Shown: positions 2,346-60,859 of the stretch, piece by piece
Position numbering within the stretch: the first letter of the stretch is position 1
Layout of the letters: each line of letters opens with the position of its first letter
Assembly (NCBI GenBank): GCA_918797485.1
Contig: CAKKNE010000001.1
Span: 1,178,001 to 1,242,000, forward strand
Origin: Pelagomonas calceolata
Taxonomy: Eukaryota
DNA length: 64,000 nucleotides
Direction: 5' to 3'
Program-made: the position numbers and the translations under genes
The notes under the pieces: generated by a model
Database searches by the model: none
Told to the model about the DNA's origin: nothing
The model's input: only the letters and a program-made list of their open reading frames with translations

Positions 2346-2368
2346 CTAGTGTCTTACAAGCCGCTAGC
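2346..2368 (+). promoter_or_regulatory. CTAG-box (CTAGTGTCTTACAAGCCGCTAGC), upstream of the 2188(-) gene
   Basis: Recurrent 22-23 bp motif in upstream/divergent spacers; near-identical to the copies at 10850 and 25221. Confidence 0.6.
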
Positions 2369-2479
2369 TGCGGATTTCCTGGGGGAGTCGCGCTCCGACA
2401 ACGCGGGTTTCCGACGTCTCTCTCGGCGTGACATATATATAGTTGGTATCATCTTTATACTCCCGCGCGCGACGCCTAT

Positions 2480-2812
2480 TTAGAGCCCGAGCTTCTCGAC
2501 GAGGCGCGCCTTCAGGACGGCCTTGAGCCCGGAGGTCTCGCATCCGAGCTCCGTGAGCGCGGCCTTGAGCCTCGGGACGGTCATCGCGTTGACCTCAGCC
2601 TGGGACCACTTCGGCGTCGCTGGCGATGCCTCCGGCGCCGCCGTCGGCGAGGGCGAGGCGTCGGCGGCGCCTTTCTGGCTCTTGGCCGGCGGCGGCGCCG
2701 AGTCCGCCTCGTCTTGACACGCCTTATCGTTCCAGGTCTTCTGGGCCGCCTCGTCCAGCCCCTTCCACATCTGGGCGAGGGCTCTCGTCGCTTCTAGTCC
2801 CGTCACCGCCAA
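2480..2812 (-). pseudogene. 5'-truncated HMG-box + SAP-domain gene fragment
   Basis: C-terminal half of an HMG box (ALAQMWKGLDEAAQKTW) and a SAP motif (MTVPRLKAALTELGCETSGLKAVLKARL). No in-frame ATG lies ahead of the HMG half and there is an in-frame stop ~14 codons upstream. Confidence 0.6.
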
Positions 2813-3328
2813 CGTACTAACTTTAATCAGGATATCAGCGCGTGGAATACCTCTTCAGTGACCACCATGGAGGGCATGTTCGAATGCTGCACTCGATTCA
2901 ATCAGAATATCGGTGCCTGGGACGTCTCATCGGTTACGAATATGAGATCGATGTTTTGGGATGCTGAGCGCTATACAGGTGCAGGTATTGGCGCGTGGGA
3001 CGTTTCTTCGGTGACAGATACGTGGGGAATGTTCAATGGTGCTGTTGTCTTCAATGGTGACATCGGCGCCTGGGATCTGTCGTCGGCCGAGATTACGTCT
3101 GCCATGTTCTCAGGCGCGAGTTCTTTCTCTCGAGACCTCCGCGGCTGGAACGTCGCGCCAGCGCAGGCGTATGAAATGTTCGAGGACTGTGGTTCCTTCG
3201 ATTTGAGGAACCTGCCTCCGGCTCTCGTCGGACGGCAGCACGAGATCTTGGAGGAGGAGTTCAACGGCCGAGAGTCGGACACCGAGCCGGAGTCGGAGGA
3301 CGAGTGGGACTCGGACTCTGACGCGTAA
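2813..3328 (+). pseudogene. BspA-like / DUF285 repeat protein, 5'-truncated
   Basis: Repeats FNQDISAWNTSSVTTMEGMF, FNQNIGAWDVSSVTNMRSMF, FNGDIGAWDLSS. The frame begins mid-repeat at ~2813-2819, with an upstream stop at 2795. Confidence 0.7.
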
Positions 3329-3396
3329 GATTTTCTGTTTTCCATCGAAGCCATCGCCGCGCGCCCCGCAAACCAGAATTATATGTACAACAAGTA

Positions 3397-5736
3397 TTAT
3401 AGATACGGCGCCGACGCGGGCGGCGCGGAAGGAGGCGAGTCGTCCTCCGAGTCCGGCAGCGCCATGGCCCAGAAAGCGTGCGTGCCTTTTCTCTTCAGTA
3501 GTCTCATGGACCCCCGCACGACTCTGACGACGTCCGGTACTTCTCTGATAGCCTCAAATAATCGATCCAGGTGGTCCCGGTCGTCGACATGAACGGTATA
3601 TTGAAAAGCAGCTTGCCCACCGGGAGCGCGCGTCTCCGACATCACGTCGACGATGTTGACCATGGAGACCGCTTGCGAGACATCTAAGAGCATCCGCGTG
3701 CGGTCGCGCCCGAACACGACTAGTGAAGAATCATAGCCAAGGACTTCACCGGTAAAAGCGTCCTTGACTTTCGAGGAAGGACCTAAGGCCTGCCTCACGG
3801 CGTCGTAATCATCATCATTCATCGCTAGGGCCGCGCCGTCGACGAAGCGCGCCCCAGGTCGCTCTAGTTCCCTCCTCAAAACTTCGCAGTCGCAGTTGGC
3901 CCTATGTACGGTACCTCGCGTCGAGTGCTGGGCCGCCACCCCATGCACGGCATCACCCGGCAACGGCCGACAGACGCTACAAAGCTGCCAGGGCTCCCGC
4001 TCCTGTAAGGGCAGTTCTTCCTGGGCGGCAAAAGAAATAATATCGCCGTTCCGCAGGACGTAGGACGACGCCTCGGAGACCTCATTGACCAAGGCGCCGC
4101 CCTGCACGTCGATGCCCCAGTCGCCGCCCTGGATGACATGTGCCACCGCATCATTTAATGTTGCGCCCTTCGCGAGATTGAGAATCCTCCCTTGGGGCGC
4201 GAAGACAAAGACCCTACTGCCCAATAGCTCGTTACGTACAAGCTCCATAAATACCGAAGCCGAATCGACTTGGGCCTCCCATTCCCCAATAATCTGCAGC
4301 CAGGGTAGGGACGCGGTCTCGTCCTTATAAGACCAATGTGCTGCGGCGCCGAGCTCCGCGACGCGGTGCATGTCGTCGGTCCTTATTTGTACTTCTAGAG
4401 GCTGGGAACCAACTAACACTGTGGTATGTAAGGATCTATAACCATTGGGTTTTGGCGAACTAATATAATCTTTGAGCGTGCGAGGTAGGGGCGTCCACCG
4501 GCCATGCACCTTCCCTAGGACGTGATAACATAAAGCCGTGTCGTCTTCTACCGACTCTGTGGTGTCATCGGCCTCCAGAATGACGCGCAACGCCACGAGG
4601 TCGTCGACGCGCTCCAAGCCGCACTGCTGCCTTCTCATCTTCTTCCACGTACTATACGCTGATTTTGTTCTCCCTTCGACCCTAATTCTTCGAGCTCGAC
4701 CCCTCACAAGCTCGTCCCCGTACAGCATCTCCTCGAGTTGCTGCCGACAAGACTCGAGAGCGGCTTCGCACCTCTTCCTACGACCTTTGATAGCCGTATC
4801 CAGCGCCAGGTACTCGCCAGGGTATAAATGCCGGAAGGCTGCGTCTTCCAATTCGGTCTTGTACGTCCAGATACCTAACCGATGCGCTAACGGCGCGAAG
4901 ATCTCGAGCGTCTCGCGCGCGATCCTCGTCCGCTTCTTCGGCGGCATGAACTCCAGGGTGCGCATGTTGTGCAACCTATCAGCAAGCTTGACGACCACAA
5001 CCCTCCAGTCGCCGGCCATGGCCACGAACCTGCGCGGATATCAAGCTTTTACGGCGCGTTACGCCATCGACGCGACGCTTGCTCGACGGCGTGCACCCGA
5101 CGCACTGGTTTGATTTCCACACGCTGCCACGCACATGCTCCGCATGTTCTCGACCTGCTCCCGTTCGGCGTCCCAGTCCGGCGTATTTAACTCCCGGGCC
5201 ATCTTCGGGAGCTTCGAGACCTTCGTCTCGCCCTCGACGATGCCTCGCACGTCGCGCCCGAACATCGCCTCCACTTCTTGAAAGGTCATGTCCGTGTCTT
5301 CGACCGTGTCGTGCAATAATCCACTAACAACAGCGTCGCGGTCCATCCTCGTTTCTGCGAGGATGGATGCTACTGCAACAGGGTGAGTGACGAACGGCTG
5401 CCCGGAGCGCCGCGTCTGGCCGCGATGCGCCAAGAAGGCGACCTCGAGAGCGTACCTTACTGCTTGCCGCGCCGACGGCCGCAGATAAGTGGTAGCTTTC
5501 TGCAGCTGCTCCGCATAGGTCAACATCTCGAGCGCGTCTTCGGGCCGCGCGGTCTCGAGTCGTTCGAACAACGACGGGGCGTGCTCCCGGATTTCCGCAG
5601 CATAGGCGAAGGCCTCCTCCACGTTCTCGAGGTCGACCTTCGGTACGACGGCCTGGAACCTCGCGTGGGGGCGCCGCGAAGGAGGGCTCAGCCAGGCGCT
5701 GGCCGGGGCCGCGGCCAGGAGCCAGAGCAGCCGCAT
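3397..5736 (-). CDS. RSH: Plastid-targeted long RelA/SpoT homologue ((p)ppGpp synthetase/hydrolase); exons 5736-5135, 5029-3397
   Basis: Signal peptide + ASAWLSP. HD motif [47 protein letters not shown]-like segment, [15 protein letters not shown] zinc finger, ACT-like C-terminus. Splicing restores ENMRSM|FVAM. Confidence 0.93.
5030..5134 (-). mobile_element. Introner-derived intron (105 nt, GT-AG)
   Basis: GTGCGTGG...CGCGCAG, followed by exon GTTCGTGG (7/8 TSD). Contains GTGTGGAAATCAA and three blocks shared with the 30783-30960 element. Confidence 0.9.
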
Positions 5737-6105
5737 GCGGGTTGATCTTCTTCCCATGATCACTTCTAAGCAATTCTGATCATCTCCGTAGGCGCTTTAT
5801 CTCCCGATCCCGTGTTGCTCGCGTAAGCAGGAGCTAGCGAAATATCGTGCTATAGACACACTAGACCGGAGAGGCACCAAAGAGCAAGCGCCCAAACACC
5901 GTCGCTGTGCGTCGCCAGGGCCCGTTATCGCGTATCCGCTCTCCTTCTTGAAGCACCTGCAGCGGGCTGCAACGCCGCCGCTCGTCGCTACAGCCTAGGC
6001 ACTCAGCACTCCCTCGCCGCCGCTGTGTCAACTCAGAGCAGCGAGCGCGACGCAGTCAACCAGCCGCCGCCGCCGCATCAATAGCCGCGCGCAGCCGTAG
6101 CAAAG

Positions 6106-6795
6106 ATGCCGAGGCCACACCTCCTCCTCGCGCTCGCCATGACATCGGCCTTCGCGCCGGCGCCGCGCACGAAACAACGCCTGGTGGACCGCCAGATGAG
6201 GTGGCCCTGGCAAAAGAAACAACAAGCGGAAGAAGGGGAAGGCGGCGACGACATCACGAACTCGCCCGTCTTCCTCCAGAAGAAGGTCGGGGTCCTCCAG
6301 AACGAGCTCGTACAACTTGATAAGGACATCGCGGCCGCCGAGGCCAAGAAACAGGAGAACTGGGACGAGTGGGGCTCGCAGATCGAGAATATGAGGAATG
6401 AGTTCGCCGCCGTGAAGAAGCGGACGCAGGAAGCTCGTACTAGAGCAGAAGCTGTGGAAAGAGCGGGTGTGCTGGATCAGCTCCTAGGCCCGATCGACAA
6501 CTTCGACCGGGCCATTGTGGCGCAAAAAACTAGAGCTGATGCGAGCGAGGGCGTCCAGAAGGTCGTGGAGCGGTACACGGGTCCCGTGGCTGCTGCTTTT
6601 GACGAGGCCTTCAAGGAACTCGGCGCGGAGAAGATCGACGAAGTAGGTGTCCCGTTCGACCCCACGATCCACGAGGCGGCCATGACGGACTTCGATGAAA
6701 ATGCCGAGCCGGACACCGTCATCAAGGTGTTCCAGTACGGCGTCAAGGTGGGAGACCGGCTCATCCGGCCGGCGACGGTCGTCGTGAGCATGTAG
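6106..6795 (+). CDS. grpE: Plastid GrpE nucleotide exchange factor
   Basis: Signal + TSAFAP; IDNFDRA, GVPFDPTIHEA, VFQYGVKVGDRLIRPATVVVS. Confidence 0.92.
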   Translation: MPRPHLLLALAMTSAFAPAPRTKQRLVDRQMRWPWQKKQQAEEGEGGDDITNSPVFLQKKVGVLQNELVQLDKDIAAAEAKKQENWDEWGSQIENMRNEFAAVKKRTQEARTRAEAVERAGVLDQLLGPIDNFDRAIVAQKTRADASEGVQKVVERYTGPVAAAFDEAFKELGAEKIDEVGVPFDPTIHEAAMTDFDENAEPDTVIKVFQYGVKVGDRLIRPATVVVSM

Positions 6796-6936
6796 TCCCT
6801 AAGATAGTTAGATTTCAAACTTCGCGTCGATGGCGTGTTGGTGGGTAGAAGCGTGCCCAAACACGCCGTCGCCGCGGCGGCGGTACCTAGTACACTCATA
6901 TGTTACTGCCGCGCCGCCGGCGTTTAGATAAGAAAG

Positions 6937-8280
6937 CTACTCGAGCACGGTCACGACGCAGTTCGCGTGGCCCTCGCCACTCGCGCGGGCAGCCCGAACT
7001 TCGTCCATGGCCCGCAGGTGCATTTGGGCACGCTCGGACGCGTAGTCCCGCCGGAACTTGCGCGCCGGTACTTGTATGGCCGTCGCGCGGGGCACAAAAG
7101 ATAATGAAGAAGCGGACGCCCGCCACACGAGCGAGTAGCTCCTCACCACGTTGAACACGGCCCGCGGGCCCACGCGCAGCGTCAGAGCGGGATCATTGCC
7201 GTCTGATCCTTCAAAAGCAGCGAGCCACAGCTCCGCCGTTGTCGCGTGTTGGAGCGTCGCGTCGTGGGCTTCTATGGACGCGCGTCTTTTCAAAGTGCCG
7301 CCGCTCGTTCCCGCATACAAGTTCAAACGCCGTCCGGTCGCGTTGCGGATACAAACCGCGCACGCCCGTGATACTTCGTCCGGCGGCGCTTGTAACGCCT
7401 TTCCCAAGTTGTCCGGCGCCCGGACCGGCCTCGCGGGCGGCACGCGCGCCGCGACGACGTCATTTGTGCCCGTGAGGAACGTTGCGGTAGGGTTCTCAGG
7501 TTCCTCTTCGAACAGCAGCTCGACGTCCTCGCCGTTGTCCCTAGCTTCAAAGTAGGCGTCCTGGAACTCATCCAAATCCTCGAAGCCTATCAATCTCAAC
7601 CCCGCGCGCATCCATTCATATGAAGCTGCTTGTGACTTTGTATGTACTTTATGTACTACGATAGAACCGTCCTTCTTGCCCTCGAGCTCGAGGCCCATCG
7701 GACTTGAGGTAGAGAAGCGCGCGCGCGGCTCCTCCTTCTTCGGGGGTGGCGACGGCGGCCTATCGTACTCCGAGTCCGAGTCCGAGTCCCCGTACACCGA
7801 AGAAGCCGTCGTTAAAGCAACGGTAAAATCCCCCGGTGCATCTGACTCGTCGTCCATCTGCCCAGAGCGCAGCTTGACGCGCTTGCGGGAACGCGGTTGT
7901 AAGTATAACACTTTCAGTGCTTGGTCGTTGTCGTCTCTGCTTAGCCACAGCTCCGCTTCCTCAGTAGAATCATTTGCTATAACTAGTACCTCGTCCACAG
8001 CAGACTCAAAACCTTGGTAGGGCTTCGTGAACGTCTTCTTCTCGTCGATTACCACGCGCGGCGTCGGCGCCTCGCCGACGTTGTGTGGGGCTATGATGCC
8101 GTCCAAGTCCACATCTCTTAAATTCTTCGACGGGACGCGGAGCGGGATCTTGCGAGACGGTTTGCTGATCACGGGCTTGGTCGGTGTTGGGTGTCGAGCT
8201 ACGGCTGCGTCGGGCTCCCATTTGGTCGGCGACAGGTCCAAGCGGTCGAAGCGCGGCAGGCCGTTGTCCAGGCTCGACAT
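6937..8280 (-). CDS. Hypothetical protein with PDZ-like and VHL-beta-like segments
   Basis: 447-aa ORF. PMGLELEGKKDGSIVVHKVHTKSQA resembles PDZ; VCIRNATGRRLNLY...QHATTAELWLA resembles VHL beta. Both domain calls are by eye. Confidence 0.6.
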   Translation of the reverse strand: MSSLDNGLPRFDRLDLSPTKWEPDAAVARHPTPTKPVISKPSRKIPLRVPSKNLRDVDLDGIIAPHNVGEAPTPRVVIDEKKTFTKPYQGFESAVDEVLVIANDSTEEAELWLSRDDNDQALKVLYLQPRSRKRVKLRSGQMDDESDAPGDFTVALTTASSVYGDSDSDSEYDRPPSPPPKKEEPRARFSTSSPMGLELEGKKDGSIVVHKVHTKSQAASYEWMRAGLRLIGFEDLDEFQDAYFEARDNGEDVELLFEEEPENPTATFLTGTNDVVAARVPPARPVRAPDNLGKALQAPPDEVSRACAVCIRNATGRRLNLYAGTSGGTLKRRASIEAHDATLQHATTAELWLAAFEGSDGNDPALTLRVGPRAVFNVVRSYSLVWRASASSLSFVPRATAIQVPARKFRRDYASERAQMHLRAMDEVRAARASGEGHANCVVTVLE

Positions 8281-8555
8281 CGTTCGAGGGGGCTGCCCTG
8301 GTGCGTCGTCGCAAGAGGTGCGCGGCGGCGCCGAGGCGACTGCTGCTTTTGTTGGAGGTGGCCTCGCGGTCGTCGCGTCGAGCCGTGCCTCGCTCTATGG
8401 GCCTGCACGGCGCGGGGCAGCCCTTTGGCCGGCGCTGGCTGGGCTCCGTTTTGCAGGCTTTTGCAATTAATTTTAATTGCACCCGATGTGCGCAGGCGTC
8501 GTAGGCGCCTCCTCTGGGGCCTGAGGGGTCGCGCCGCGACCTGTGGAATGTGGTT

Positions 8556-8577
8556 GCTAGCGGCTGCAAGGCACTAG
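8556..8577 (-). promoter_or_regulatory. CTAG-box (CTAGTGCCTTGCAGCCGCTAGC) in divergent spacer
   Basis: Lies between 8280(-) and 8853(+). Confidence 0.55.
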
Positions 8578-8852
8578 GAAGCGCCCAGCCAGCTGATGCG
8601 AGTTGCTGCGCAGCAGTGCTCACGCGTTGCGCATCAGGACCTCGGCAGTGCACAGCATTAGTGCGCTGCAAACGTGCGGCATCGATAGCCTCGCTGCTGT
8701 GCTGCTGGAGCTGCCTGTGAGAGCTGCACCTGCTCAGCTCAGCGCTGCGCGGACCGCTGCCGCGACGCGTCATAATTCGCAGCCGCATACGCGTCGGAAC
8801 GGCTGCGCGCGTAGCTGCACGCCATCGCCGCGCCGCGCGCCACACGCCCGCG

Positions 8853-9050
8853 ATGGGACTCGTCCACGAGCGCCTCCTCAACGCCACCTACTGGAAAGAA
8901 ATCGTGGGAGACGCGCCGGAGGAGGGCGTCGACCCGCTCGTGCTCAAGCTGTTCGCGGGCGTCATGCTCCTCTGGGTCTTGTTTGGACCTTGCTTGACCT
9001 ACGCCGTGGAGCTGAGCGGTAGGAGGCGGAAGCGACTAAAGCAGGACTAG
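8853..9050 (+). CDS. Small single-pass membrane protein
   Basis: 65 aa, one hydrophobic helix followed by a basic tail; coding-like codon usage. Confidence 0.55.
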   Translation: MGLVHERLLNATYWKEIVGDAPEEGVDPLVLKLFAGVMLLWVLFGPCLTYAVELSGRRRKRLKQD

Positions 9051-9149
9051 TATTACGCATACCCCACCCGCACGCCATCGCCGCGACCGCGTCGACGGCG
9101 CGGAGAGGATACGACGTCGAAAAAAGAGGGAAACACAGTTAGAGAGAAA

Positions 9150-10439
9150 CTACCAGTCGCCGTACCGGTAGTCGTCGTAGCTCCCCGGCGCGTGGAAGAG
9201 CCAGAACGACGGGAAGACGCGCTCGCCCTCGAGCGTCTCGAGGTGCTCGACGAGCTCCATCGTCGAGATTTTAGAGGAGGCGTGCTCGGCCAGCTTCCCG
9301 ACGATCTCGTCGCGATGCGAGTTCAACTTCGCGTGCCACTTCATCTCCGAGATATAATGTTCCACGTTATGAATCTGCATGTAGTCGTACTCGTCGTCCT
9401 CGGGCTCCTCGGACGGCTCGAACTGATGGCAGCGGTGCTTCTTGAGCTGCGGTTCTAGGCTCTTCAGCTTCTTCTCCGCTTCCCGCCAGCTTAACCGGGG
9501 AGCCGTTTCATTACTACTGACAGCATCCCAAGCACCAGGATAGCCGAGCGCGTCGCCCAATTTTGTTAACTCCTCGAACAGCGGGTCCGCCTCCGTCAGC
9601 GTCGCCCGCGGTTGCAGGCCATCTTCTTTCGCCGCCGTATCATTGAAATGGTGCGCAAAACTCTCGGCGAAGTGCTCGACGACCTCATTCCGCCACTGCT
9701 CGTCGCGCTTCCGCGCCGCCTCTTCGTCGTAGTGGTCGTCGGACCAATTCGGCGTATAATCATCAGTGTGCTCCTGGAAGCCGTCTCCATCAATATCGCC
9801 CGGTTGCTGGTGCTTCGCCTTGAGAAAAGCATCTCGCTCGACCTTGTCCTTTCGTAACTCCTCGAGGACCTCCTGGTGGAGCGCGTCGTGCCTCTGCTTC
9901 GCCTGGGCACCTGAAGACATCATCGGTTGGAGGATTCTCGCATCAATAACAGTTCTGAGTTCCTCGAACAACGCATCCACGGCGTCCTCCAAGTAGGGCT
10001 TCACGGCATCTCTAGCTTGGAACGTGACCGCCGCGTCGCCGATGGCCGCGGCATCTAGAGCTCTCGTGACATTTTTTCTATGTAACTTCTCCAATTCTCT
10101 GAGTCGCGAACGCAACCGAAGGGCGATCTCCGTCTCCTTCATCTCCTGCTCGAGGTGCTGCTCGAGCTCCTGGCCGATGGACGTGAATCTACTATGGGCC
10201 GTGTGTTGCGCGGCTCGCGCGCGCGCTCGTTTCGCCGCGAGCATGGGGGCTATGCGTCTGAGAGCTGCGTCGCTCTGCCACACGAATAGACCGGCGGCGA
10301 GTAACACTAAGAAGATGCATGACAGATATTTACAGCACGTGTTCCGCTGGACGACCAACGCGGGCTCTTTCGAGTGCTCGTCCTTGGTTCTTCTAAAGCC
10401 GGCGGCGCCCTCCAAGTCCATGGCGGTCTGGGGGATCAT
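9150..10439 (-). CDS. Type II membrane coiled-coil protein
   Basis: 429-aa ORF with an N-terminal TM helix (CIFLVLLAAGLFVW) followed by coiled-coil/acidic regions. Confidence 0.75.
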   Translation of the reverse strand: MIPQTAMDLEGAAGFRRTKDEHSKEPALVVQRNTCCKYLSCIFLVLLAAGLFVWQSDAALRRIAPMLAAKRARARAAQHTAHSRFTSIGQELEQHLEQEMKETEIALRLRSRLRELEKLHRKNVTRALDAAAIGDAAVTFQARDAVKPYLEDAVDALFEELRTVIDARILQPMMSSGAQAKQRHDALHQEVLEELRKDKVERDAFLKAKHQQPGDIDGDGFQEHTDDYTPNWSDDHYDEEAARKRDEQWRNEVVEHFAESFAHHFNDTAAKEDGLQPRATLTEADPLFEELTKLGDALGYPGAWDAVSSNETAPRLSWREAEKKLKSLEPQLKKHRCHQFEPSEEPEDDEYDYMQIHNVEHYISEMKWHAKLNSHRDEIVGKLAEHASSKISTMELVEHLETLEGERVFPSFWLFHAPGSYDDYRYGDW

Positions 10440-10849
10440 TGTTATCTCGCGTCTTGTTCGGTCGCGCGGTGTTGATCGCTTCCGCGGCAGCGGCGTATTA
10501 TTGCTGCTGCTTGTGAGCGGCGGTGAGCGCGCGGTTTTTTGCTTTGCGGCGCGCGCGGCGGGACACGCGGCACTTTCTCCTGAGGCTGGGGCTGTGGGTC
10601 ACGGCTGATCCGCGGCCTCTGTGGTAACAAGCGCGCGCAGCTGCGCAGTCGTTCGCTAGAGGAGAGTTGCGCAACGACAGCTGCGCAACCTATTATAAGC
10701 TGGCGTGCAGGACGGCGGCGGCGACTTGGCTCGAGCTCTCTGTTTTTTTTGCGCCTAGCTCGGTCCACCAGCGCTCCGGTGGAGGATCGGAAGCGGTCGA
10801 GAGGCGTCCGCTTGACCGATTCACCGAAGATGGGTCCCGGAGCTTCCTG

Positions 10850-10872
10850 CTAGTGTCTTACAGGACGCTAAG
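10850..10872 (+). promoter_or_regulatory. CTAG-box (CTAGTGTCTTACAGGACGCTAAG) in divergent spacer
   Basis: Lies between 10439(-) and 11058(+); first 21 nt identical to the 25221 copy. Confidence 0.6.
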
Positions 10873-13076: not shown

Positions 13077-13099
13077 CTAGTGTGTCTCTGAACGCTAGC
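13077..13099 (+). promoter_or_regulatory. CTAG-box (CTAGTGTGTCTCTGAACGCTAGC) in divergent spacer
   Basis: Lies in the 173-bp spacer between 13005(-) and 13179(+). Confidence 0.6.
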
Positions 13100-13739: not shown

Positions 13740-13937
13740 CAACCCTTCCTGCGACGGACGCTAGCGTTTCGCGCTAGGAAAGCTCTCCATCCAGGCGGAG
13801 CTGAGCAGTGCGCGCTCGCCTTGCGCGAAGTTGTGGAGGAGCGGGCAGCCAGTTTGCGTACGGTATCTGCGCCAGCGTTGCTCGGTCGTCCGATCGGCAG
13901 CGATTACAGATCGGCAGCAAGATTACAGATCGGCAGC

Positions 13938-15929: not shown

Positions 15930-15951
15930 GCTAGCGTCACAGAGGCACTAG
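15930..15951 (-). promoter_or_regulatory. CTAG-box (CTAGTGCCTCTGTGACGCTAGC) in divergent spacer
   Basis: Lies between 15770(-) and 16042(+). Confidence 0.55.
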
Positions 15952-18543: not shown

Positions 18544-18689
18544 GGTTTTGAAAAGGTGCTCATCGGAACGCGGGGAGCGAGAGAAACGTTTTTACGGGGA
18601 CGGAAAGGGCGAGCGGCGAAGAACAGCGTTCTGACGAGCGGCGTAAAACAGCTTAAATGCTAGTGGCGCAAAACTCACTAGGGCCTGTG

Positions 18690-25220: not shown

Positions 25221-25243
25221 GCTAGCGTCCTGTAAGACACTAG
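25221..25243 (-). promoter_or_regulatory. CTAG-box (CTAGTGTCTTACAGGACGCTAGC) in divergent spacer
   Basis: Lies between 24960(-) and 25474(+). Confidence 0.6.
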
Positions 25244-50738: not shown

Positions 50739-51085
50739 CGCTGCGGTGTTTGGTTGGGGTGCAGCGCTGCGCTTGCTGTGTTTGGTGCACCGCCGCGGCA
50801 CGCTCCGGCGCGGCTGAGGAGGGGCTGCCTATATGTTTGCTATATAGCGCGGCTCTGCCCTTCGCGGCGCAGCCCTTCGATGCGCACCGCCTGTTATGCG
50901 CACGCTGGCTTCTATACGGCGCCACGGGCTGCCTCTTTGCGCTTCCCTCGCGGCTCGCGGCCCCGCTCTCTGTGGCGCTGAATGCCGAAGTAATCCTAGT
51001 GTCCTAGTGTGCGGGGTTGGTATAGCTGTCCAGGGATCGACGCCCGGTCCAGCCGGACGGCTAGGGAACGCTGGATCCCGCGTGG

Positions 51086-51108
51086 GCTAGCGGCCTGTGA
51101 CACACTAG
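51086..51108 (-). promoter_or_regulatory. CTAG-box (CTAGTGTGTCACAGGCCGCTAGC) in divergent spacer
   Basis: Lies between 50738(-) and 51239(+). Confidence 0.6.
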
Positions 51109-52444: not shown

Positions 52445-53230
52445 CTAGGTGGCCCACCCACCCATGAAGATAGACTTGGCGACCTGCTCCTTGCGCTTGA
52501 CCCCGCCCTCGACCCGGGCGTCCTGGAACTTGTCGTACTCCTCGCCGCGCTTCTCGTAGGCTTGCTGGAGGGCGTCCACCGGCTCTTTCGCAGGCTTCGC
52601 CTTGCCCGCGCCGAAGATGCGGTAAGCTAATGAACCGGGCTTCCGTCCCGCCGGCGCGGAGACCGGTCTATTGGAAGGGAGCCGCTTGCCGAAGCTGTCT
52701 CTCTCAATCACCTCGGCCTTCGCCTCCTTCCGCCTAAAACCTAAACGGGCCGAGAGCGGCCTCTTTTGTTTCCGGCCCTCGGCGCGCACCATCGCGAGCC
52801 ACTCCGGCGGCTTCCTCTCTTTTTCCCTTGCTAAAATCCGGGCGTCCCGCGCCAGGCCGTCGTAGATGGGCGTCGGCTCGTAGCAGGGCCTTCTATGAGG
52901 CACGTGGAGCTCCGCCCGTTCCCGCCCGTACCTCGTTAATGTCGTATTTTTGGCGTACTTCGCCCGCCACCGCGCCAGCTCCATCGCCTCGAGGGAGACG
53001 TGTAAATCTTCGTGCTCCTTGCGGTACTGCTGGGCCTTGGATAGCGGTCTTGCGGCCGGCGGCGTGTTGTAGCCCCGCAACCGGTCTAGAATCGTTTCCG
53101 TACCGCTGAGCGTATCCCCTAACTCCTTTTTCCTGAGTTTGGACGTGTAGCCCGTGATCTGGGGCCGCAGGTGGCGGTGCTTGCCGTCCTTGGGCAGGGC
53201 GTTCATCTGCCGGCTGTTGGGGGCCGCCAT
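52445..53230 (-). CDS. Hypothetical basic protein
   Basis: ATG (MAAPNS) in ACAATGG context; coding-like composition. Confidence 0.6.
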   Translation of the reverse strand: MAAPNSRQMNALPKDGKHRHLRPQITGYTSKLRKKELGDTLSGTETILDRLRGYNTPPAARPLSKAQQYRKEHEDLHVSLEAMELARWRAKYAKNTTLTRYGRERAELHVPHRRPCYEPTPIYDGLARDARILAREKERKPPEWLAMVRAEGRKQKRPLSARLGFRRKEAKAEVIERDSFGKRLPSNRPVSAPAGRKPGSLAYRIFGAGKAKPAKEPVDALQQAYEKRGEEYDKFQDARVEGGVKRKEQVAKSIFMGGWAT

Positions 53231-53590
53231 TGTTGTTATGGCCGGCGGGGCAGCGCTTCCTGCGTGCCCTCGGACCGTCCGCCGGGCGTGATGCCCGTGG
53301 GGCGTGCGCGGGGTGCGGCGCGGTGAGCCTGCTCTCCCTTGCGTAATTATTTTTTGCCAGCTAGCGTTTAAACGCACTTAGATTAAGCCCAGCTCCCTCG
53401 AGCGACAAGCAGCCCTACAGCTCCCCGTTGGCCTCTCCGGCGTATTGTGTGATCATCACGCTCTTGCCACAGCGCTGCGGCAAGCTTCTCACGCGAGCAT
53501 CACACGCCCAGCGAGCCCAGCAGCCGCGGCCCCATCCCAGCATTAGCTACACGCACGCCGCAGCCGCGACGCCGCCGCCGCGACGCAAAA

Positions 53591-54382
53591 ATGTACAACG
53601 GCATCGGTCTCAGGACCGCGCGCGGCTCGGGCACGAACGGCTACGTCCAGTCCAACCGCGCCTTCGTGAAACCGGTCAACGTGAGAAGAGCCGAGGAGAT
53701 CAACCGGACCGGAGGAATAGGAGCCAGAGACGGCGAGTGGAAGGCGCGGACGGCGGTCGAGGGGAACAAGGAGATCAACGAGCACAACCGCAAACGCGAG
53801 GTCGAGGCCCAGGTCTACGCGTTGCGGGACGAGCTCGAGGAAGAAGACGTTCCCGAGGCCGAGATCGACAAAAAATGCGACGAATTACGCCAGGAATTAC
53901 TCGCGAAGATGCCCACACCAAAGAAGGTCGGCACAGACTCGCACCAGAACGCCGAGGCGAAGGCGAGAGATGATCAAAAGCTCCGCGACGCGTTCGGGAT
54001 CCGGGACGATCGGCACGTCCCCGGGGCGGCCTTCGACCGGGAACTGCAGGACCAGCTCAAGGCGCAACGCCAGGCGGAGCGCGAGGCGCGGGCGCTCGAG
54101 GAGGCGGAGCGCGCGCGGGCGCGGAAGCAGAAGGATCTTGATAGACGAGAGCGCGAACTTAAAGAGAAGGAGAAGGCTTTGAAGCGGCGCGAGCGGAAGC
54201 GCGACGGCGGCGACGATGGTCGGGCGCCGAAGCGGCGGCGGGCGCGGTCTGCGTCGTCTTCCTCCTCGTCCTCGTCCTCGTCGTCCTCGTCCTCGTCGTC
54301 CTCATCATCCTCGTCGTCGTCGTCGTCGAGCTCCTCCAGCTCTTCGTCGTCGTCGTCTAGCTCTTCGTCCTCGAGTTCGTAG
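53591..54382 (+). CDS. CWC21: Splicing factor CWC21/SRRM2-like with poly-Ser tail
   Basis: MYNGIGLRTARGSGTNGYVQSN, EHNRKREVE, LRDAFGI, GAAFDRELQ. Confidence 0.92.
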   Translation: MYNGIGLRTARGSGTNGYVQSNRAFVKPVNVRRAEEINRTGGIGARDGEWKARTAVEGNKEINEHNRKREVEAQVYALRDELEEEDVPEAEIDKKCDELRQELLAKMPTPKKVGTDSHQNAEAKARDDQKLRDAFGIRDDRHVPGAAFDRELQDQLKAQRQAEREARALEEAERARARKQKDLDRRERELKEKEKALKRRERKRDGGDDGRAPKRRRARSASSSSSSSSSSSSSSSSSSSSSSSSSSSSSSSSSSSSSSSSSS

Positions 54383-54639
54383 TGTGATAACTTGAGGAGA
54401 CCTGTAGCTTTGTTGTGACCGGAGGCCCCGAGGCCCCGGACGCGACGACGCCGTCGGAGGCCTCAGAGGCCCCGACGCCGGATTCGCCTGCGCGGACGCT
54501 CGACGATCTCGCCGCTGCGTCGCCGTCTCCGCCGCCGCCCGCGCTCACGGTCCGCCAAAGTGACGCGCTCGCCTCGTCCCTGGCACTCCTGCCGGAGATG
54601 CTCAAGCAACAGGCGCCCGCGCCTGCCGCGGAGGCGCCA

Positions 54640-55130
54640 TAGCCGATCGCCGAGTCCAAATATTCACGGGTAGCATCCAAGGAACATACCCTCGCGGCCC
54701 CCTGAGAAGTCCCTTTTTTGTCCCGAGGCTCTGTTTCAGAAATCTGGGTCCTTTCGCAGCGATGGCGCGTCTGGACTACATTGGACTACATTAAAATATT
54801 AAATATTCATATCTGTAGGTAAGGACACGGGGTTGTTAATAAGTGGATGTATTAATCTTATATACGGATAATGATCATCGGCGACGCCGACGCCTCTGTA
54901 GACGCCGGGCGCCGCAATTTATATATTTACTAGTCCTTAGCAATGATAAGCTCCCTAGTCCTTAGCAAAAGCACCCCGGATACCTAGCGTAACCGACTTA
55001 CTAGCAAATTCAAAGATACGCTTCGATAGCGTCAAAAGAATGACCAAAATTCAGAACACATCCTAGTCGTTCGCCGAGACCAAATATGTCAGAGTAGCGG
55101 CCCGGGAACATACCCTCGCGCCTCCCGGAA
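54640..55130. repeat. ~65-bp diverged direct repeat pair 424 bp apart
   Basis: TAGCCGATCGCCGAGTCCAAATAT...GGAACATACCCTCGCG at 54640 and TAGTCGTTCGCCGAGACCAAATAT...GGAACATACCCTCGCG at 55064. Confidence 0.8.
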
Positions 55131-56637
55131 GGCACCGCCCGCGACATTCGCGGATCAGTCTTACGGCTCGCCAAAGTGCGCCAGCGATTAACGCCGCCAT
55201 CTACCGTCCAAATGGGACATTATATCAACTCCAGCCCAGTTTTCATACACAATCGACGGAACCGGAGCCGACGGCCCGCGCTCGGAGGGCGGGAGAAGAA
55301 TTCTACTAGACAACTCTCGCGTTTATGTTCGTTTCCTTCCGTTTGTTGGGGGTAGATTCCATCCTGACCGCCACGACGCCGACGAGGCACATTAAGTGCT
55401 CCGTTGAAGCCGCTCGAAACGACGAATCCGCGACCCTGCGTTTACGTGATAAGTGGCTCAGAACCTAGACCTGCGAGTATCAGCGACGCCACCATCCAAA
55501 TGAACCATAACGCCGTTGTTCTATTCACAATCGACCGACTTGCCCGTTCTCCGCGGGCGACGGTGCGTACGCGGGGCACTGAATTGGCCCCAGACCGGTG
55601 GTTTATAAAATAAATTTGCATTTCAGGCGCTTTAGTAGTGGGACGGGCCAGATAACCGGCCTGAGCGTCTACTACATTTGATTTCCTATTGCCAAATGCT
55701 CCCGCGCCTTGTCGGTCTCGAGACCCCACTATCTCGATTAGATGGGCTTTAAACCTGGACCTGCGACCATCAGCCCGTGTACCATCACCATGGACCATAA
55801 TGCGACCGTTTGTTCTATGACCGACCGACTTACGCGAGCTCCAGATAAAGATGTTCACGTCCCGAGCGTGGGCAGCCCAAAGTACCCTTCTCGCGGTGTA
55901 GATGTCGTATACTTGTAATTGACTATCGCTGGGGTAGTATGGGGTCCGACGAGACCGCTACGGCGACTACTGGGGCCCCTCGGGTAATTGACGTTTTTGA
56001 CGGGAACGGGGCGCCATCGGGTCCAAATTGCACACTTTTTTCGGGGGCAGATCGGCTCCCGGACTCCCTCTGGGATAGGTCCGAGGTCGGATAGTCGCCT
56101 ACGCCGCATGCGCCGATTCTTGGAGCTCTTCGGGGAGCTCTGGATCGAAAACCTTGGGGACTTGGGCTGGAGACAGATGCGTGGCTGAGAGAATTGCCTC
56201 ATATGTCTCTACCGATGGAAGCGCCCGCGCATGCGGCGTAGGCGATTGCCCACGTCTTATACCGACCCTAGGTGGCCTCGGGGACACCTCCGGGCCCCAA
56301 ATCGACAGGATTCCACCGATGCGCCCGCCATGGCGGCGTCGTCAATTTCGCGAATTAAAAAATTAATTTTTTTCGCCCCCTAGTAAGTGTCCCATTGATC
56401 TCTTTGGACCATTAGCGAACGGAACGATACTCAAACGGCTGCATGTCGTCTTGTGTTCCCAAACCTAGTGTGTCTCCACCCTAGCTTGCTGGGTCAAACT
56501 TAAAAAACAAAGCTGCCCATTTGCCTGCCAGAGCTCATCTGCACAGCATCAGGAGAGCATCAGTCGTAGCAGCACAAATAGGCTGCCCCACGCTAGTCGG
56601 CGCGGCATCTATAACACTACTCAAAACATAGCATACC

Positions 56638-57304
56638 ATGTCGACGACAGCGCGACCCGCCTGGAGCGACGACTGCTTCAAACCACAGCCAGAGCGCCAC
56701 TACAGAGGCAAAAGGCCCTCGCGGCGGTTGGTTGCGGGAAACTCGGCGAGGACGACAAGTGTAGCATCGATCGTCACCCAGGACGGAGTCCATCCGGACG
56801 AGGCGGCAGATTGGTTGGGCCTCGGGGCACGGCGCCGCGGTCCCGAAAGTGTGCCGCCGCCGCCGAGCGGGACGAGGAGCCTGCGCGAGGCGCTGGAGGC
56901 GAGCGCCGCACCGACCCAGCACGCCGCCGGCCAAACCACGGCGCGCAAGTCAATGCGTGAGCCGGCGGAGCGCTACCAGCGCGAGCTGCCGCCGCCTCCA
57001 GTGGCAACCCCAGCAGAGCCGGAGCCGCCAGCGCCGCCCCCGCCGCCGCCGCCCGCGCTGACACAAACAGATTCCCGGCGCCTTGGCCGCAGACACTTCG
57101 GCGGCGCGAGGACGCGGCCCGAGGGCTTCCTCGTTTGGGACGAGTCGGCCCACGAAGCGGCGGTGCGCGCGCGGGCACCGACGGCCACGCGGATATCGGT
57201 ACGCGCTCGCCAGGGCGCGCCGGCGCCCGCGCGGCCGCCTGATACTTCCCTGGGGAGCGTCATAGGTTGTGATAATGTTGACACCTTATTATTATTGCTC
57301 GTGA
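56638..57304 (+). CDS. Hypothetical Pro-rich protein (possible intron 57199-57265; 3' end uncertain)
   Basis: ATG with a CTAG-box variant upstream (56465). A GTACGC...CATAG candidate intron avoids the long antisense overlap. Confidence 0.45.
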
Positions 57305-58152
57305 TTCGTCTCCCGCCGCCTCGTACAACTCGAAAGCAAGCGCACACTGGCGAACGACAGCAGAAACACGGCATAGGACGCGAGGTAGGGATAGGACGGA
57401 GCCGCCGGCGCCGGCGCTTCCGCCGCGGGGAGCCGGGCGCAAAACGCGTGGTCGTGGTAGATGCCGTGCCCGCCGACGCGGCAGCCGCTCGTCCGATAGG
57501 CGTCCTCGATCTCCCAGACCGTCGCCGTTCCGTCGTCGACGGCCTGCCGGAACACCAATGCCGCCGCCCACTCGTTGTGCACGCGGCGGCCGAGGAGCCG
57601 CGGCCCGTGCGCCCATAAGGAGTGATTCATCGCCGTCGGCCGGGCGGCGAAGAAGTCCGTGCAGATTGCGGGATGCGACGTGTTGCGCGGGCAGCAGCGC
57701 TCGAGCACTGCGACCTTTGGCTCTATCATCCGTGCTGCGAGAAACTTTGTGTCTTCGAAGCGCACGTCAGGGTTCGTGCGCACGATCCAAGCATAGCGAT
57801 CGAACCAGCCGCGCCGGGCGGCGATCATCATCGCGGAGAGAGCTCCTTCTTGGAGTCCGGGATTCCATCGCGTCCAGGCGAGCGTCGCATTACGCACAGG
57901 GAGCGCCGCGAGGGCGTGCGCCCACGACGCAACGTCGGCGGCGAGCTGGTTGGAGCCGGCGTAGAGGAGCACGTCGGCTTCTCCTAACAACGGCGAGCGC
58001 CGGAGCGCGTTGGGCCAACACGAACGTAAAGTAGAGAGGTGGCATTCCGAGCAGTGGGTCGTGAGGTAGAGTAGAATCGACGCCGATGGGCCGCGATCGC
58101 GGCGAATGGGAATCACGGCGAGGGCGCGGTCGGGCAACGCTGCGGCGGGCAA
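57292..58152 (-). pseudogene. 5'-truncated hypothetical (glycosyltransferase-like) gene
   Basis: GWFDRYAWIVRTNPDV, CTDFFAARP. No ATG at the start and an in-frame stop 18 codons upstream. Confidence 0.5.
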
Positions 58153-58550
58153 CTCTCTGGACCTTCGTCTCGGTGCTCTGGTCGCGCGGCATCCGCTACG
58201 TCGTCATCGGCGCGCGCCTGCTGGACGCGATCAAACGCGCGGGCCACGAACGGATGTATACTGGGGGCGTCGCGGGTTTGCTTGGTATGATGATATTCAA
58301 CGCCGTCGTCATCGCGGACTGCGCGCGGCGGCTCTGGAAGTTCGGCGTCCGGACGCCGATGCCTCGGCCTCCAATTCAACCCTCGGAGCGACTCCACGGC
58401 TTCATGCTCTTCTCGAAGGAGATGCGTCCCTACGTCGAGCGCGACGACCCGTCGCTCACGTATGGCCAGGTCGGCAAGCGCCTCGCCGAGCTCTGGCGAT
58501 GCCTGACGGACGCGGAGAAGGCCAAGTATGCACTGCCGAGGAGGCGCTAA
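58086..58550 (+). CDS. HMG-box protein (5' end probably truncated)
   Basis: GFMLFSKEMRPYVERDDPSLTYGQVGKRLAELWRCLTDAEKAKY. Confidence 0.7.
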   Translation: MGRDRGEWESRRGRGRATLRRATLWTFVSVLWSRGIRYVVIGARLLDAIKRAGHERMYTGGVAGLLGMMIFNAVVIADCARRLWKFGVRTPMPRPPIQPSERLHGFMLFSKEMRPYVERDDPSLTYGQVGKRLAELWRCLTDAEKAKYALPRRR

Positions 58551-58607
58551 CTACAGTAGGATTCTTAACGTAGTGGACAGGGGGGGACAGTGGACAGGGG
58601 GGATTGT

Positions 58608-60716
58608 TCATACCGGTACAGCCGTCTCGGCCGCCGGTTTAATGACGGCCTTGAGCGCCGCCGCGTCGAGCGTCTCGTGCTCGACCAGCGCGTCGGCCAA
58701 AGCACGAATAATGCTCTCGTGGTCCTTCACGAGTTGCAAGGCGCGTGCTTCCGCCTCGACAAGCTCCGCGCGCACAGCTGCGTCGCCATCCTCGCCACCA
58801 ATTTCATGCCTCTTGCCATATTCATCAATCCAAGACGTGAAGACGGCGCCGTCCTGCGACAACCCATACGTCTTGACGATGGCCTCCGCTAAGACAGCAG
58901 CTCTCCGGACGTCGTCGGCCGCGCCCGTCGACGCGTCTCCTAGCAAGTGGGCCTCGGCGGCCTTGCCCGCGAGCATCATCACAACTCTATCACGTAATTC
59001 GGCCCGTCTCAGATTCGTCGCGTCGCCGGCGCCGAACATCGTGACTCCTAGCGAGCCGCCGCTCCGGGGCCTTACCGACGCGCGCGTCGCCTCGTCCACA
59101 TTTTCCAGAAAGAAGCTCGAGACCGCATGCCCGGCCTCGTGGACGGCGATCCGATGGTCCGGTTTCGGGGACGCGCCGTCCGGGTGCGTGGGGATGCCCA
59201 GTATAGCATCTTCAAGGGCTCTCAAATAGTCGTCCCTCGTCGCGTAGTCTTGGTCCTTGTCCAACGCGGCCAGGGCTGCATCGTTGACGACCGCAGCAAC
59301 ATCCGCACCCACCAACCCGGGAGATAAATCAGCCAGAGTCGAGGCGAGGTCAGTATCATTCTCGACCTTCGAACCGCCCTCGTAAGATACAGAAAATGAA
59401 ACATCTTCTGAACCGCTCTTGCGCTGCGCCCTCCTACCCTGGGCCCTTGCAATAATAGCTTCCAGGTCGCGCGCATCTAACCTAGCGGTATTATTGGCAA
59501 ACAACGTCGCTTTTGCTCTCAACCCGGCCGCCTTGACGGGCTTGAAGACTCGCAACGTCGTATTGTCGAGGGCCTGGCAGGCAACTTCGGTATTATCGAC
59601 CTTGAACGTAATCTCGCGCGCCAGGAACGCCGACCGCTGCCTGCCGACGTAGTGCTCGAATAAAGCTTCTCTTCCATCTCTATCCGGCGCCGCCATCTCG
59701 ACCACCCTATCAAAACGGCCTCTTCTGGTAAGAGCGGGATCGAGCATGTCCCGCCTATTCGTCGCGGCTAGGACGACAACATCGGGATTGGAGGCATCTC
59801 TCACCCCAAAGCCGTCCATCTCGACCAGTAATTGGTTCAGCGTGTTGTCGTGGTCCGCACCTACTGCCGACGCGTCGCCGCCTCGGACTCTTCCACACGA
59901 GTCGAGCTCATCAATAAAAACCACGGCGAGTCTGCCCGTACTTCGCGCGGCCACGCGTCTCGCAGCCGCGAACAGCGTGCGCACTCGTTCGACGCCGACG
60001 CCCGCGTACTTGCCCTTGACGATTTCAGCTGCCGAGGCTACCAACAAAGGCGCGTCGAGCTGCGCGGCCGCCGCTCGGGCTATCAATGTTTTTCCCGTCC
60101 CCGGCGGACCAGCTAGTAAGACGTTGCGCGGCGGCGTCGCGCCGGCCCTCCGGGCTTTTTGTGAGGCGTCGGCCGCGCCGGCCACGCGTAGTATTCTTCT
60201 CAACTCCGACACCGCCGCGGGCGCACCTACCACGTCGTCCCAGGTCGTGGCGTCCGGTCCACTTCCGCCGCCGTAGACCGTGATGAAATCGTCGACGCCC
60301 TCCTCGTTCAAAATAACGCCTTCTCTACCCAACTTCTTCTTGATCGATTGGGTTATACTTCGAAACGTGTACGCGCAGGACCGCGGTGCTAACACGCAGC
60401 CCTGGAGCAGCGCTAGAGCTAGTCTTGCCGCCGTTTTAGGACCGGTGAAGCGTTTTGTGGTCGCGGTCGTGTTCGCGACGAAGCCTTCTTCCGGTGCCGT
60501 GTGCGAGGCGTTCTTGCCGCCGCCACTTGGCGGCTTAGGCTTGGGGGCCCGGGGCGCTTTGCGGGTCTTGCGGCGCGGGGCGAGGGGCGTGCTGCCGGCG
60601 GCGGTCGCCAGCAGCACCACGCAGCCGAGGTTTACCGCATGACCGACCCCAATGAGAGGACTGAAACCCAGTGCCCAAAAAAAGGCTGTGATCAGGACGG
60701 GGATCGGCGTACGCAT
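58608..60716 (-). CDS. ftsH: FtsH/AFG3-like AAA+ zinc metalloprotease
   Basis: N-terminal TM; GPPGTGKT, VFIDELD, NQLLVEMDGF, ATNR..LDPALTRRGRFDR, HEAGH, STGAADD. Confidence 0.9.
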   Translation of the reverse strand: MRTPIPVLITAFFWALGFSPLIGVGHAVNLGCVVLLATAAGSTPLAPRRKTRKAPRAPKPKPPSGGGKNASHTAPEEGFVANTTATTKRFTGPKTAARLALALLQGCVLAPRSCAYTFRSITQSIKKKLGREGVILNEEGVDDFITVYGGGSGPDATTWDDVVGAPAAVSELRRILRVAGAADASQKARRAGATPPRNVLLAGPPGTGKTLIARAAAAQLDAPLLVASAAEIVKGKYAGVGVERVRTLFAAARRVAARSTGRLAVVFIDELDSCGRVRGGDASAVGADHDNTLNQLLVEMDGFGVRDASNPDVVVLAATNRRDMLDPALTRRGRFDRVVEMAAPDRDGREALFEHYVGRQRSAFLAREITFKVDNTEVACQALDNTTLRVFKPVKAAGLRAKATLFANNTARLDARDLEAIIARAQGRRAQRKSGSEDVSFSVSYEGGSKVENDTDLASTLADLSPGLVGADVAAVVNDAALAALDKDQDYATRDDYLRALEDAILGIPTHPDGASPKPDHRIAVHEAGHAVSSFFLENVDEATRASVRPRSGGSLGVTMFGAGDATNLRRAELRDRVVMMLAGKAAEAHLLGDASTGAADDVRRAAVLAEAIVKTYGLSQDGAVFTSWIDEYGKRHEIGGEDGDAAVRAELVEAEARALQLVKDHESIIRALADALVEHETLDAAALKAVIKPAAETAVPV

Positions 60717-60836
60717 CCTGCCAAGGTGATCAGCGGTAGGTGGGTGATAGCCGCGAACTTTGTGACGTGTTTTTGACGGCTCTAGGTAGGCCAATGCAGA
60801 GAAGTAGCCTCGAGAGCTGACGGTGTTTTTTTGTTT

Positions 60837-60859
60837 CTAGTGTGTCAATCAACGCTAGC
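60837..60859 (+). promoter_or_regulatory. CTAG-box (CTAGTGTGTCAATCAACGCTAGC) in divergent spacer
   Basis: Lies between 60716(-) and 61071(+). Confidence 0.6.

Follow-up and report, generated by a model that had tools for sequence, protein, structure and literature searches.

A twin-CTAG element positioned just upstream of transcription starts at head-to-head and tandem genes of Pelagomonas calceolata

Many spacers in a 64-kb stretch of Pelagomonas calceolata DNA (the whole stretch is called the window below, and positions are counted from its first letter) contain a two-part sequence with CTAG at each end, which raises the question of whether this sequence is a genuine signal and what it does for the neighbouring genes. 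The exact pattern CTAGTG-N9/10-CGCTAGC occurs seven times in the window (2346, 8556, 13077, 15930, 25221, 51086 and 60837); 200 blockwise dinucleotide shuffles gave it 0.005 times on average and never more than once. All coordinates given in the first-pass annotation contain the sequence described, and seven of its eight bipartite copies are exact, but the eighth (10850) ends in CGCTAAG and is a variant. A matrix trained on metagenome copies only, without those of the window, found 8 copies in the window (23.8–40.1 bits) and yielded no match of at least 16 bits in 15 shuffled windows. The spacing from CTAG to CTAG peaks at 17–18 nt (9 of the 29 pairs closer than 60 nt). The twin-CTAG element is real and apparently previously undescribed; no description of a pelagophyte promoter motif was found in the literature searched.

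The element is a polar quasi-palindrome of 23–28 bp, composed of a TG half and a CG half separated by a spacer of 8–11 nt whose core, T(C/G)TTACA, is softer. Information content is at background level immediately beyond the motif edges (126 aligned copies). Among 40 unselected CTAG pairs, 23 were TG+CG, none was CG+CG and one was CA+TG, which rules out CpG decay of a perfect palindrome as the source of the asymmetry. The halves are better conserved than the spacer: in 16 unselected copies the halves were perfect and the spacers mostly decayed or altered by indels, and a reverse search for intact cores returned five, all with the CTAGs intact or with one mismatch. An RFX-type half-site, used for comparison, is a poor match; just 6% of the aligned copies have G at position −4. 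The features of the window are as follows; 5' ends and contig ends are those of RNA, and distances are in nt outward from the element.

2346..2368, plus strand: full element, 10-nt spacer, 37.8 bits; tandem setting, TG half toward the minus-strand gene starting at 2188; RNA contig end at 2319 (27 nt out), contig of another run ending at 2255
5833..5864, minus strand: long-spacer variant between a RelA/SpoT gene (minus) and GrpE (plus); minus 5' end at 5805 (18/77 molecules)
8556..8577, minus strand: full element, 9-nt spacer; divergent spacer 8280/8853; closest mapped 5' end at 8425 (131 nt off)
10755..10758, unstranded: lone CTAG; a minus-strand 5' end (10725) lies 30 nt downstream
10850..10872, plus strand: element with variant CG half, 29.0 bits; divergent spacer 10439/11058; plus 5' ends at 10895 and 10902 (23 and 30 nt out)
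13077..13099, plus strand: full element; divergent spacer 13005/13179; minus contig ends at 13049 and 13050 (27 nt out)
13760..13777, minus strand: short-spacer CG/CG variant directly after a stop codon; tandem; plus 5' end at 13802 (25 nt out)
15930..15951, minus strand: full element, 9-nt spacer; divergent spacer 15770/16042; plus 5' end at 15965, 14 nt from the near edge and 31 from the far CTAG
18659..18681, unstranded: TG/TG variant within a longer dispersed repeat; convergent spacer
25221..25243, minus strand: full element nearest the consensus, 40.1 bits; divergent spacer 24960/25474
50996..51009, plus strand: pair of TG half-sites in tandem; a minus 5' end at 50972 lies 24 and 32 nt downstream of them
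51086..51108, minus strand: full element preceding the ribosomal protein S5 gene (plus); plus contig start at 51128 (20 nt out)
53360..53381, minus strand: variant with A/T-rich spacer, midway between two RNA starts 76 nt apart, minus at 53332 (12/22) and plus at 53408 (15/53; 12/44)
54983..55004, minus strand: weak variant, 12.0 bits, without a mapped 5' end, in a repeat-like block of higher AT content
56465..56485, plus strand: 8-nt-spacer variant, 10.5 bits, upstream of the ORF at 56638 (plus); plus contig start at 56503
60837..60859, plus strand: full element between an AAA/M41 protease gene (minus) and a PhyH-family gene (plus); minus contig end at 60822 (15 nt out)
63649..63661, plus strand: CG-half remnant in a 5' leader, downstream of the RNA start

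Two of these variants (18659–18681 and 54983–55004) had been missed by the first-pass annotation. The dispersed repeat around the former is also present in two metagenome loci (L030 and L079), and this TG/TG variant is probably not a promoter element proper. The half-site near 63649 is present but lies inside the leader, about 50 nt past the plus 5' ends at 63597/63598. The variant at 5833 appears, from its sequence, to consist of a decayed CG half and a newer CG half 8–9 nt further out.

Gene context was assessed in the window and in Pelagomonas-type metagenome contigs, where a scan gave 142 further exact copies across 121 loci (locus L115 was left out as a 98% duplicate of L015). The copies had been described as marking most bidirectional promoters and as lying mostly between head-to-head genes. 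Within the window, 9 of the 15 definable divergent spacers contain a full or variant element (6 have none), and copies such as those at 8556 and 15930 fit this picture, but those at 2346 and 13760 are in tandem settings; plus-strand RNA was essentially nil in the 600-nt bins covering 2201–3400, around the former. For the 25 metagenome copies with both neighbours called, by a crude gene caller, 10 settings were divergent, 13 tandem and 2 convergent-looking. A bidirectional-promoter-specific element is rejected by this lack of confinement. Since metagenome copies are more often tandem than divergent, the twin-CTAG element is therefore a general promoter element, found at head-to-head and tandem genes alike. 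Resolved sides of metagenome copies faced a gene start in 78 of 103 cases (P=1.6e-7); neither neighbour was called for 64 of the 142 copies, which are excluded here. The claim that coding and convergent DNA are free of the element held for coding DNA, none of the 142 metagenome copies falling inside predicted CDS (149 of the 334 kb of these loci), but the TG/TG variant at 18659–18681 occupies a convergent spacer. Sampled neighbouring proteins clustered with named P. calceolata proteins in 7 of 10 cases, on contigs of five different chromosome-scale sizes. Overall, the element is over-represented and non-coding in the window and the metagenome loci, at many genes of unrelated function.

The position of the element relative to transcription was determined from 5' ends in stranded RNA-seq (raw reads and contig ends, neither of them cap sites). 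One sample supplied all three raw-read runs, and ends at 4021 and 59304, within coding regions, were left out. The RNA-seq ends listed, not cap-mapped, fell 14–30 nt outside the element on 11 of the 15 sides with data (1.8 expected, P about 3e-7), and a second, independent stretch alone gave 5 of 6 sides (0.64 expected, P 6e-5). On the remaining four sides the 5' end was 64–131 nt away. The distance from the near CTAG to the raw-read 5' end was 23–30 nt for six ends and 14 nt for one, and contig ends lay at 13–27 nt; the farthest contig ends were at 13–20 nt in five of seven cases near full or variant elements. A CTAG or CTTAG/CTAAG ended 20–36 nt upstream (a range picked after the first data had been seen) of 8 of the 11 raw-read 5'-end clusters listed, with 1.3 expected; the clusters at 8425, 17190/5 and 63597 had no CTAG there. 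For the element at 53360, starts at 53332/53409 were predicted beforehand and 53332/53408 were observed. 5' ends fell within the ±6-nt windows set in advance on only two of the six sides that had data (P=0.08), and three further sides were contig ends 8–13 nt nearer the element. Judged by these RNA-seq ends, which are not cap-mapped, the element is positioned just upstream of transcription starts.

Orthologous sites were compared in a relative (metagenome locus L028) with about 87% coding identity and 51–75% spacer identity to the window. The element was kept at two of three sites, one of which (2346, 22 of 23 positions identical) is ascertained because this locus was retrieved via its copy of that site. 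The ortholog of the 5833 site contains an element with a 10-nt spacer (19.1 bits), and the lost CG half at 5833 appears, on sequence comparison, to have been replaced. At the ortholog of the 8556 site the element is absent; the stretch there has been replaced and does not form a clean empty site.

Because a fixed signal precedes many genes and mRNAs start about 15–30 nt from its edges, the element is likely to be a landing site for a start-setting protein. The explanation that we consider the most probable is a site for an abundant factor that sets transcription starts, similar to CGCG/BANP (BANP is the binder of the vertebrate CGCG element) or DRE/DREF. Such a general DNA-binding factor would bind ahead of many Pelagomonas genes and open their promoters, placing RNA polymerase II starts about 15–30 nt beyond either edge, with a single copy serving two genes if these are head-to-head (as at 53332/53408) and one gene if they are tandem; the site itself may have originated as a short mobile repeat that was later retained. 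The two CTAG halves would be the main protein contacts and the element a cause of the start sites, not a mere companion. The initial suggestion of a dimeric-factor core promoter element is backed by RNA 5' ends and gene context as far as a factor-bound core promoter is concerned, but a site for a simple symmetric homodimer is a poorer fit because the halves are not equivalent (23 of 40 pairs TG+CG, none CG+CG).

Broader, and unlikely when taken as a whole, is a scenario in which the two-CTAG module has replaced the TATA/BRE core in Pelagomonas. It would then be the docking point of the basal machinery, or of a dedicated factor in the TBP slot, fire either way, form complete two-gene promoters of only about 76 bp and owe its spread to some thousands of genes to a tiny mobile repeat. 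The element could also be a docking site for the basal machinery itself, a lineage-specific TATA/BRE replacement readable both ways, with TBP occupying either the A/T-richer core or one CTAG half and TFIIB/TFIIA-type contacts on the flanking halves. The near CTAG ends 23–30 nt ahead of most raw-read 5' ends, which is the slot of a TATA box; if true starts are nearer the farthest contig ends, the core would be near −30 from either side, and the copy with the tightest two-sided starts (53360) has a spacer core that is all A/T. Compared by eye with the BRE and TATA consensus, however, the halves do not match BRE and most cores are not TATA-like (column frequencies); the 126 aligned copies show no clear or sharp initiator signal at a fixed distance, and one element could not carry two complexes simultaneously. 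We regard this docking site as rather unlikely, even with the precedent of the related oomycetes, in which, according to the relevant part of PMC3599244, TATA boxes are absent and own core elements are used.

A mobile origin of the element is possible: its copies have the look of repeat descent because one identical 23-mer accounts for 38 of 126 strict copies and about 10 of 149 copies run on into a common 30–50 nt on the CG side, with ragged far ends. It is distinctly unlikely that the copies are merely inert remnants of a tiny mobile element favouring open promoter DNA, with start proximity reflecting landing preference only. Tandem units of the extended repeat at two loci, one or two CTTG units adjoining 32 of 141 copies like a short tail, further CTAG-rich repeats in the same spacers and the missing element at the 8556 ortholog are in line with such remnants, and inverted halves are present, around a body of only 8–11 nt. 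The domesticated micro-MITE put forward in the first-pass annotation nevertheless fails on target-site duplication, which was not detected at fixed boundaries (k=2–9, all P≥0.5) and exceeded expectation only slightly when the boundaries were left free (16 against 9.4 at ≥7 nt; 3 against 2.2 at ≥8 nt). Most flanks have no sequence in common, the halves outlast the spacers, a lost half was apparently replaced at 5833, and insertion bias alone would not readily produce the symmetric starts at 53332/53408. The replaced stretch at the 8556 ortholog, the one element-less ortholog, also offers no clean empty site for CTAG as the duplicated target of a 14-nt insert. Protein-free action as a hairpin, cruciform or intrinsically nucleosome-repelling DNA is highly improbable, since only the near-perfect copy at 25221 folds well (z=−3.7), but the other five of six folded copies are unremarkable (z −0.9 to +0.25), the stem is broken by the fixed TG/CG asymmetry and by the commonest spacer, and the conserved property is sequence, not pairing; a structured RNA or conserved hairpin is likewise rejected, with one of six copies folding above shuffles and no Rfam family on any copy.

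Yeast Abf1, Reb1 and Rap1 sites are long (Abf1 gapped and two-part) and occur at many promoters of unrelated function, a likeness to the Pelagomonas element; their spacer is rigid and the start is farther away, whereas here the spacer is variable and the start closer. The portion of PMC6192621 dealing with the vertebrate CGCG element describes a palindromic motif of TATA-less GC-rich promoters with divergent starts on both sides, in one case two starts 30 nt apart around a single copy. That element is 10 bp and one-part, with starts spread over 20–70 nt and peaking near 50 (PMC6192621, same portion), in contrast to the 23–28 bp, two-part, variably spaced, polar and CTAG-based Pelagomonas element with starts clustering at 14–30 nt. 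Drosophila DRE/DREF, BEAF-32 and M1BP sites are presented in the pertinent section of PMC12549938 as lineage-specific housekeeping-promoter motifs near starts, often between close divergent genes; they are short, have known binders and are unrelated in sequence to the Pelagomonas element, whose binder is putative. The oomycete INR, FPR and DPEP, as excerpted from PMC3599244, are likewise lineage-specific core motifs of TATA-less stramenopile promoters; they sit at the start or beyond it in the downstream direction, whereas the Pelagomonas element is upstream and in either orientation to the gene. In the part of the P. infestans binding-site atlas available to us (PMC11267843), CTAG is named only within an HSF site, and the quasi-palindromic Paulinella promoter was rejected as a counterpart, being restricted to one gene family in the corresponding extract of PMC9191642. 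The same genome carries pelagophyte introner elements/MITEs, which are also abundant short repeats whose ends are inverted (bioRxiv 10.1101/2021.10.25.465678, in part); these are about 210 bp and intronic, whereas the twin-CTAG element is about 25 bp, intergenic and without target-site duplication.

One of the most abundant picoeukaryotes of the open ocean is a pelagophyte, and a rough extrapolation gives about 2,500–4,000 sites in the genome. A long start-linked motif at so many sites would be a first handle on transcription initiation in the compact Pelagomonas genome. It could be used as a minimal bidirectional promoter in genetic tools and as a gene-start marker in metagenome bins, and it is a tractable system in which to ask whether mobile repeats give rise to lineage-specific core promoters. 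Outside Pelagomonas, the tight consensus had no match in the viral collection, and 11 single matches to a looser pattern, on AT-richer, mostly CTAG-rich contigs without the pelagophyte intron motif, were read as chance. The one match in prokaryote genomes (L134), the sole one in a 4.1-Mb bin, is near a contig end with rising GC and CpG and is probably a chimeric join.

The window is eukaryotic sequence of 64% GC with dense genes and few introns. Exact CTAGTG-N9/10-CGCTAGC elements, a TG half and a CG half around a spacer, occur seven times in it, compared with a mean of 0.005 across 200 shuffles. The variants that the first-pass annotation listed were confirmed in the window sequence. Its copy at 10850 is present, but with an altered rather than canonical CG half. 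Two extra variants were found at 18659 and 54983, each within a repeat.

Wider evidence was drawn from RNA sequencing runs and a single scan of metagenomes. The scan returned at least 125 stretches with the strict 23-nt pattern; 122 loci were stored and a duplicate (L115) was left out. The remaining loci hold, among the matches listed, 126 strict and 142 exact copies (spacers 8–11 nt). Of 10 neighbouring proteins sampled, 7 share a 90% cluster with a named P. calceolata protein, on contigs of five different lengths; the other three had no named member among the cluster members listed. The matches listed represent at least two lineages, about 84–87% alike, and show none more distant. In these copies the motif exceeds the length first noted by about five biased bases ahead of the TG half, the four free positions of the core show strong fixation (A 0.93, C 0.92, A 0.82, G/T 0.86), and information outside the motif is at background level. 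Composition is fixed at one TG and one CG half. In 16 copies chosen independently of the strict pattern, perfect halves occurred solely with spacers of 8–11 nt, most of these being degraded forms of that core. Three coincidences among samples suggest roughly 2,900 strict sites and the window density roughly 2,500, for a genome of ∼32 Mb as inferred from passages of the pelagophyte pangenome preprint.

Gene context was assessed in both data sets. In the window, TG/CG-type half-sites are densest in divergent spacers (3.1 per kb), followed by convergent spacers (1.75) and coding DNA (0.25). Coding calls at the metagenome loci came from a simple codon model that used window sequence for training, and the resulting counts are approximate because the caller misses genes. 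None of the 142 exact copies listed lies in predicted coding DNA, and a gene start is faced on 78 of 103 sides with a called neighbour; neither side was called for 64 copies. The element had been said to mark most bidirectional promoters. Within the window this agrees, narrowly, with the 15 divergent spacers definable from ORFs and RNA (nine with a full or variant element, two with lone CTAGs only, four with no CTAG), but among the 25 metagenome copies listed with both sides called, tandem arrangements (13) outnumber divergent ones (10; two look convergent). It is a feature of promoters in general.

RNA 5' ends were mapped on 1001-19000 and 50001-64000 from stranded polyA reads (three runs of one sample) and from the transcript contigs of two runs, and those in the second stretch were predicted in advance from the first. 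At 53360-53381, starts were predicted at 53332 and 53409 and reads piled up at 53332 and 53408. Three further sides gave contig ends only, 15–20 nt out and 8–13 nt closer than predicted; one side was off prediction (50972, preceded by two tandem half-sites 24 and 32 nt upstream), and no start was found for the copy in the repeat block. Under a null in which the start is uniform between element and ATG, with copy 2346 scored by the farther of two contig ends, ±6 nt prediction windows matched 2 of 6 sides (P=0.08), and the 14–30 nt range fixed by the first stretch held 5 of 6 in the second (P=6e-5). Overall, 11 of 15 sides with data have a 5' end 14–30 nt out, whatever the element orientation. 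The mapped ends are fragment ends and probably lie some nucleotides short of the cap. A CTAG-type word ends 20–36 nt upstream of 8 of the 11 raw-read 5'-end clusters listed (two rows within coding regions were left out of the start counts), among them the start at 10725 with a lone CTAG 30 nt upstream.

The element is a real, lineage-specific promoter element, combining a defined motif and polarity with a flexible spacer, a promoter location and nearby 5' ends on either side. We consider it moderately likely that an abundant factor grips both CTAG halves; once bound, it would keep the DNA open, and polymerase II starts would be placed 15–30 nt outside the element. The polarity and spacer play are the reason for proposing a heterodimer or two-module protein. 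BANP, Abf1, RFX and TATA/BRE positions form the general background to our comparisons. The element appears to work like known general promoter-factor sites, but it has its own architecture, and its distance to starts is unusually tight, in the TATA-slot range. Direct docking of basal factors on the element in such a slot is an alternative of low probability. Other comparison systems were drawn from PMC6192621, PMC12549938, PMC9191642, PMC3597505, PMC11267843 and PMC3599244. The element is apparently undescribed: no Pelagomonas or pelagophyte promoter motif was found in the open-access full texts searched, and the main texts of the P. calceolata genome and pelagophyte pangenome preprints contain neither 'promoter' nor 'motif', though their supplements could list it as an unclassified repeat.

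That the copies are inert mobile remnants is improbable. For the counter-case named in the first-pass annotation, the element lying inside longer transposable-element copies with target-site duplications, no such duplication is seen when the copies' boundaries are fixed and little when they are left free. Among the matches listed, an identical 23-mer accounts for 38 of 126 strict copies and CTTG units adjoin 32 of 141; on their CG side, about ten copies run on into a common, raggedly ending sequence of 30–50 nt, and two loci (L094, L105) carry tandem units. These features make a repeat-like birth followed by retention plausible, which is compatible with the two-half-gripping factor. The companion sequence follows the CG half at L020:741-790 and in L015, L030, L034, L035, L049, L054, L089, L094 and L105; in several copies that side faces a gene end. 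A protein-free structure is highly improbable. Hairpin stability is not conserved among the copies folded, and Rfam has no family on any element copy.

Locus L028 is syntenic with 3-10336. Of the five coding regions compared, four are ∼86–89% identical and one is 72% identical; spacers show 51–75% identity. Copy 2346 is 22/23 identical in L028, which was itself retrieved through that copy. The orthologous 5833 site carries a regular element with a 10-nt spacer; in the window the original CG half has apparently decayed, and its apparent replacement sits 8–9 nt beyond it, at 29 nt from the start. Copy 8556 is absent from its orthologous L028 site, which sits in a replaced stretch.

Other features of the window and related loci were as follows.

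2480-2824, minus strand: SAP-domain reading frame
2867-3328, plus strand: DUF285 fragment, no plus-strand RNA
5028-5133, 30781-30961, 9070, 11760, 52388: short abundant repeat in 3' regions as well as introns, of the introner type seen in pelagophytes
18461-18798; also L030:3791-4095, L079:1-81, L040:1908-1959, L012:4716-4782: mosaic repeat
34057-34143, minus strand: twister-P3 ribozyme match (Rfam, 42 bits; gathering score 39.9)
42846-50738, minus strand: 2630-aa ORF that carries an IQ motif and long repeats rich in Ala, Pro and Glu

Compared with its alignment blocks, L028 is missing ∼470 nt near the DUF285 fragment. A 105-nt intron in the RelA/SpoT gene was confirmed by RNA. The mosaic repeat combines units resembling telomeric sequence with a long palindrome (near 18690-18717); several of its junctions carry CTAG, and its hairpin-then-CTAG order may be likened to Helitron 3' ends. 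The twister-P3 match, in a convergent spacer next to a dispersed repeat (33914-33942), points to a pelagophyte self-cleaving RNA that perhaps belongs to a small retroelement. At 11615-11656, within a 3' region, lies a small hairpin repeat with CTAG; reads in the hundreds and several contigs originating at other loci match it, so it is a common transcribed 3'-end repeat. The AT-richer block at ∼54700-56450, with two ORFs without Pfam match, is likely a transposon remnant; mapped reads differ from it at many positions, so other transcribed copies exist. The sole match in a prokaryote-collection scan, L134:1750-4023, where GC and CpG jump near the contig end, is probably a piece of algal sequence that became attached to a bacterial bin. 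The 5' part of the 2630-aa ORF is covered by plus-strand (antisense) reads.
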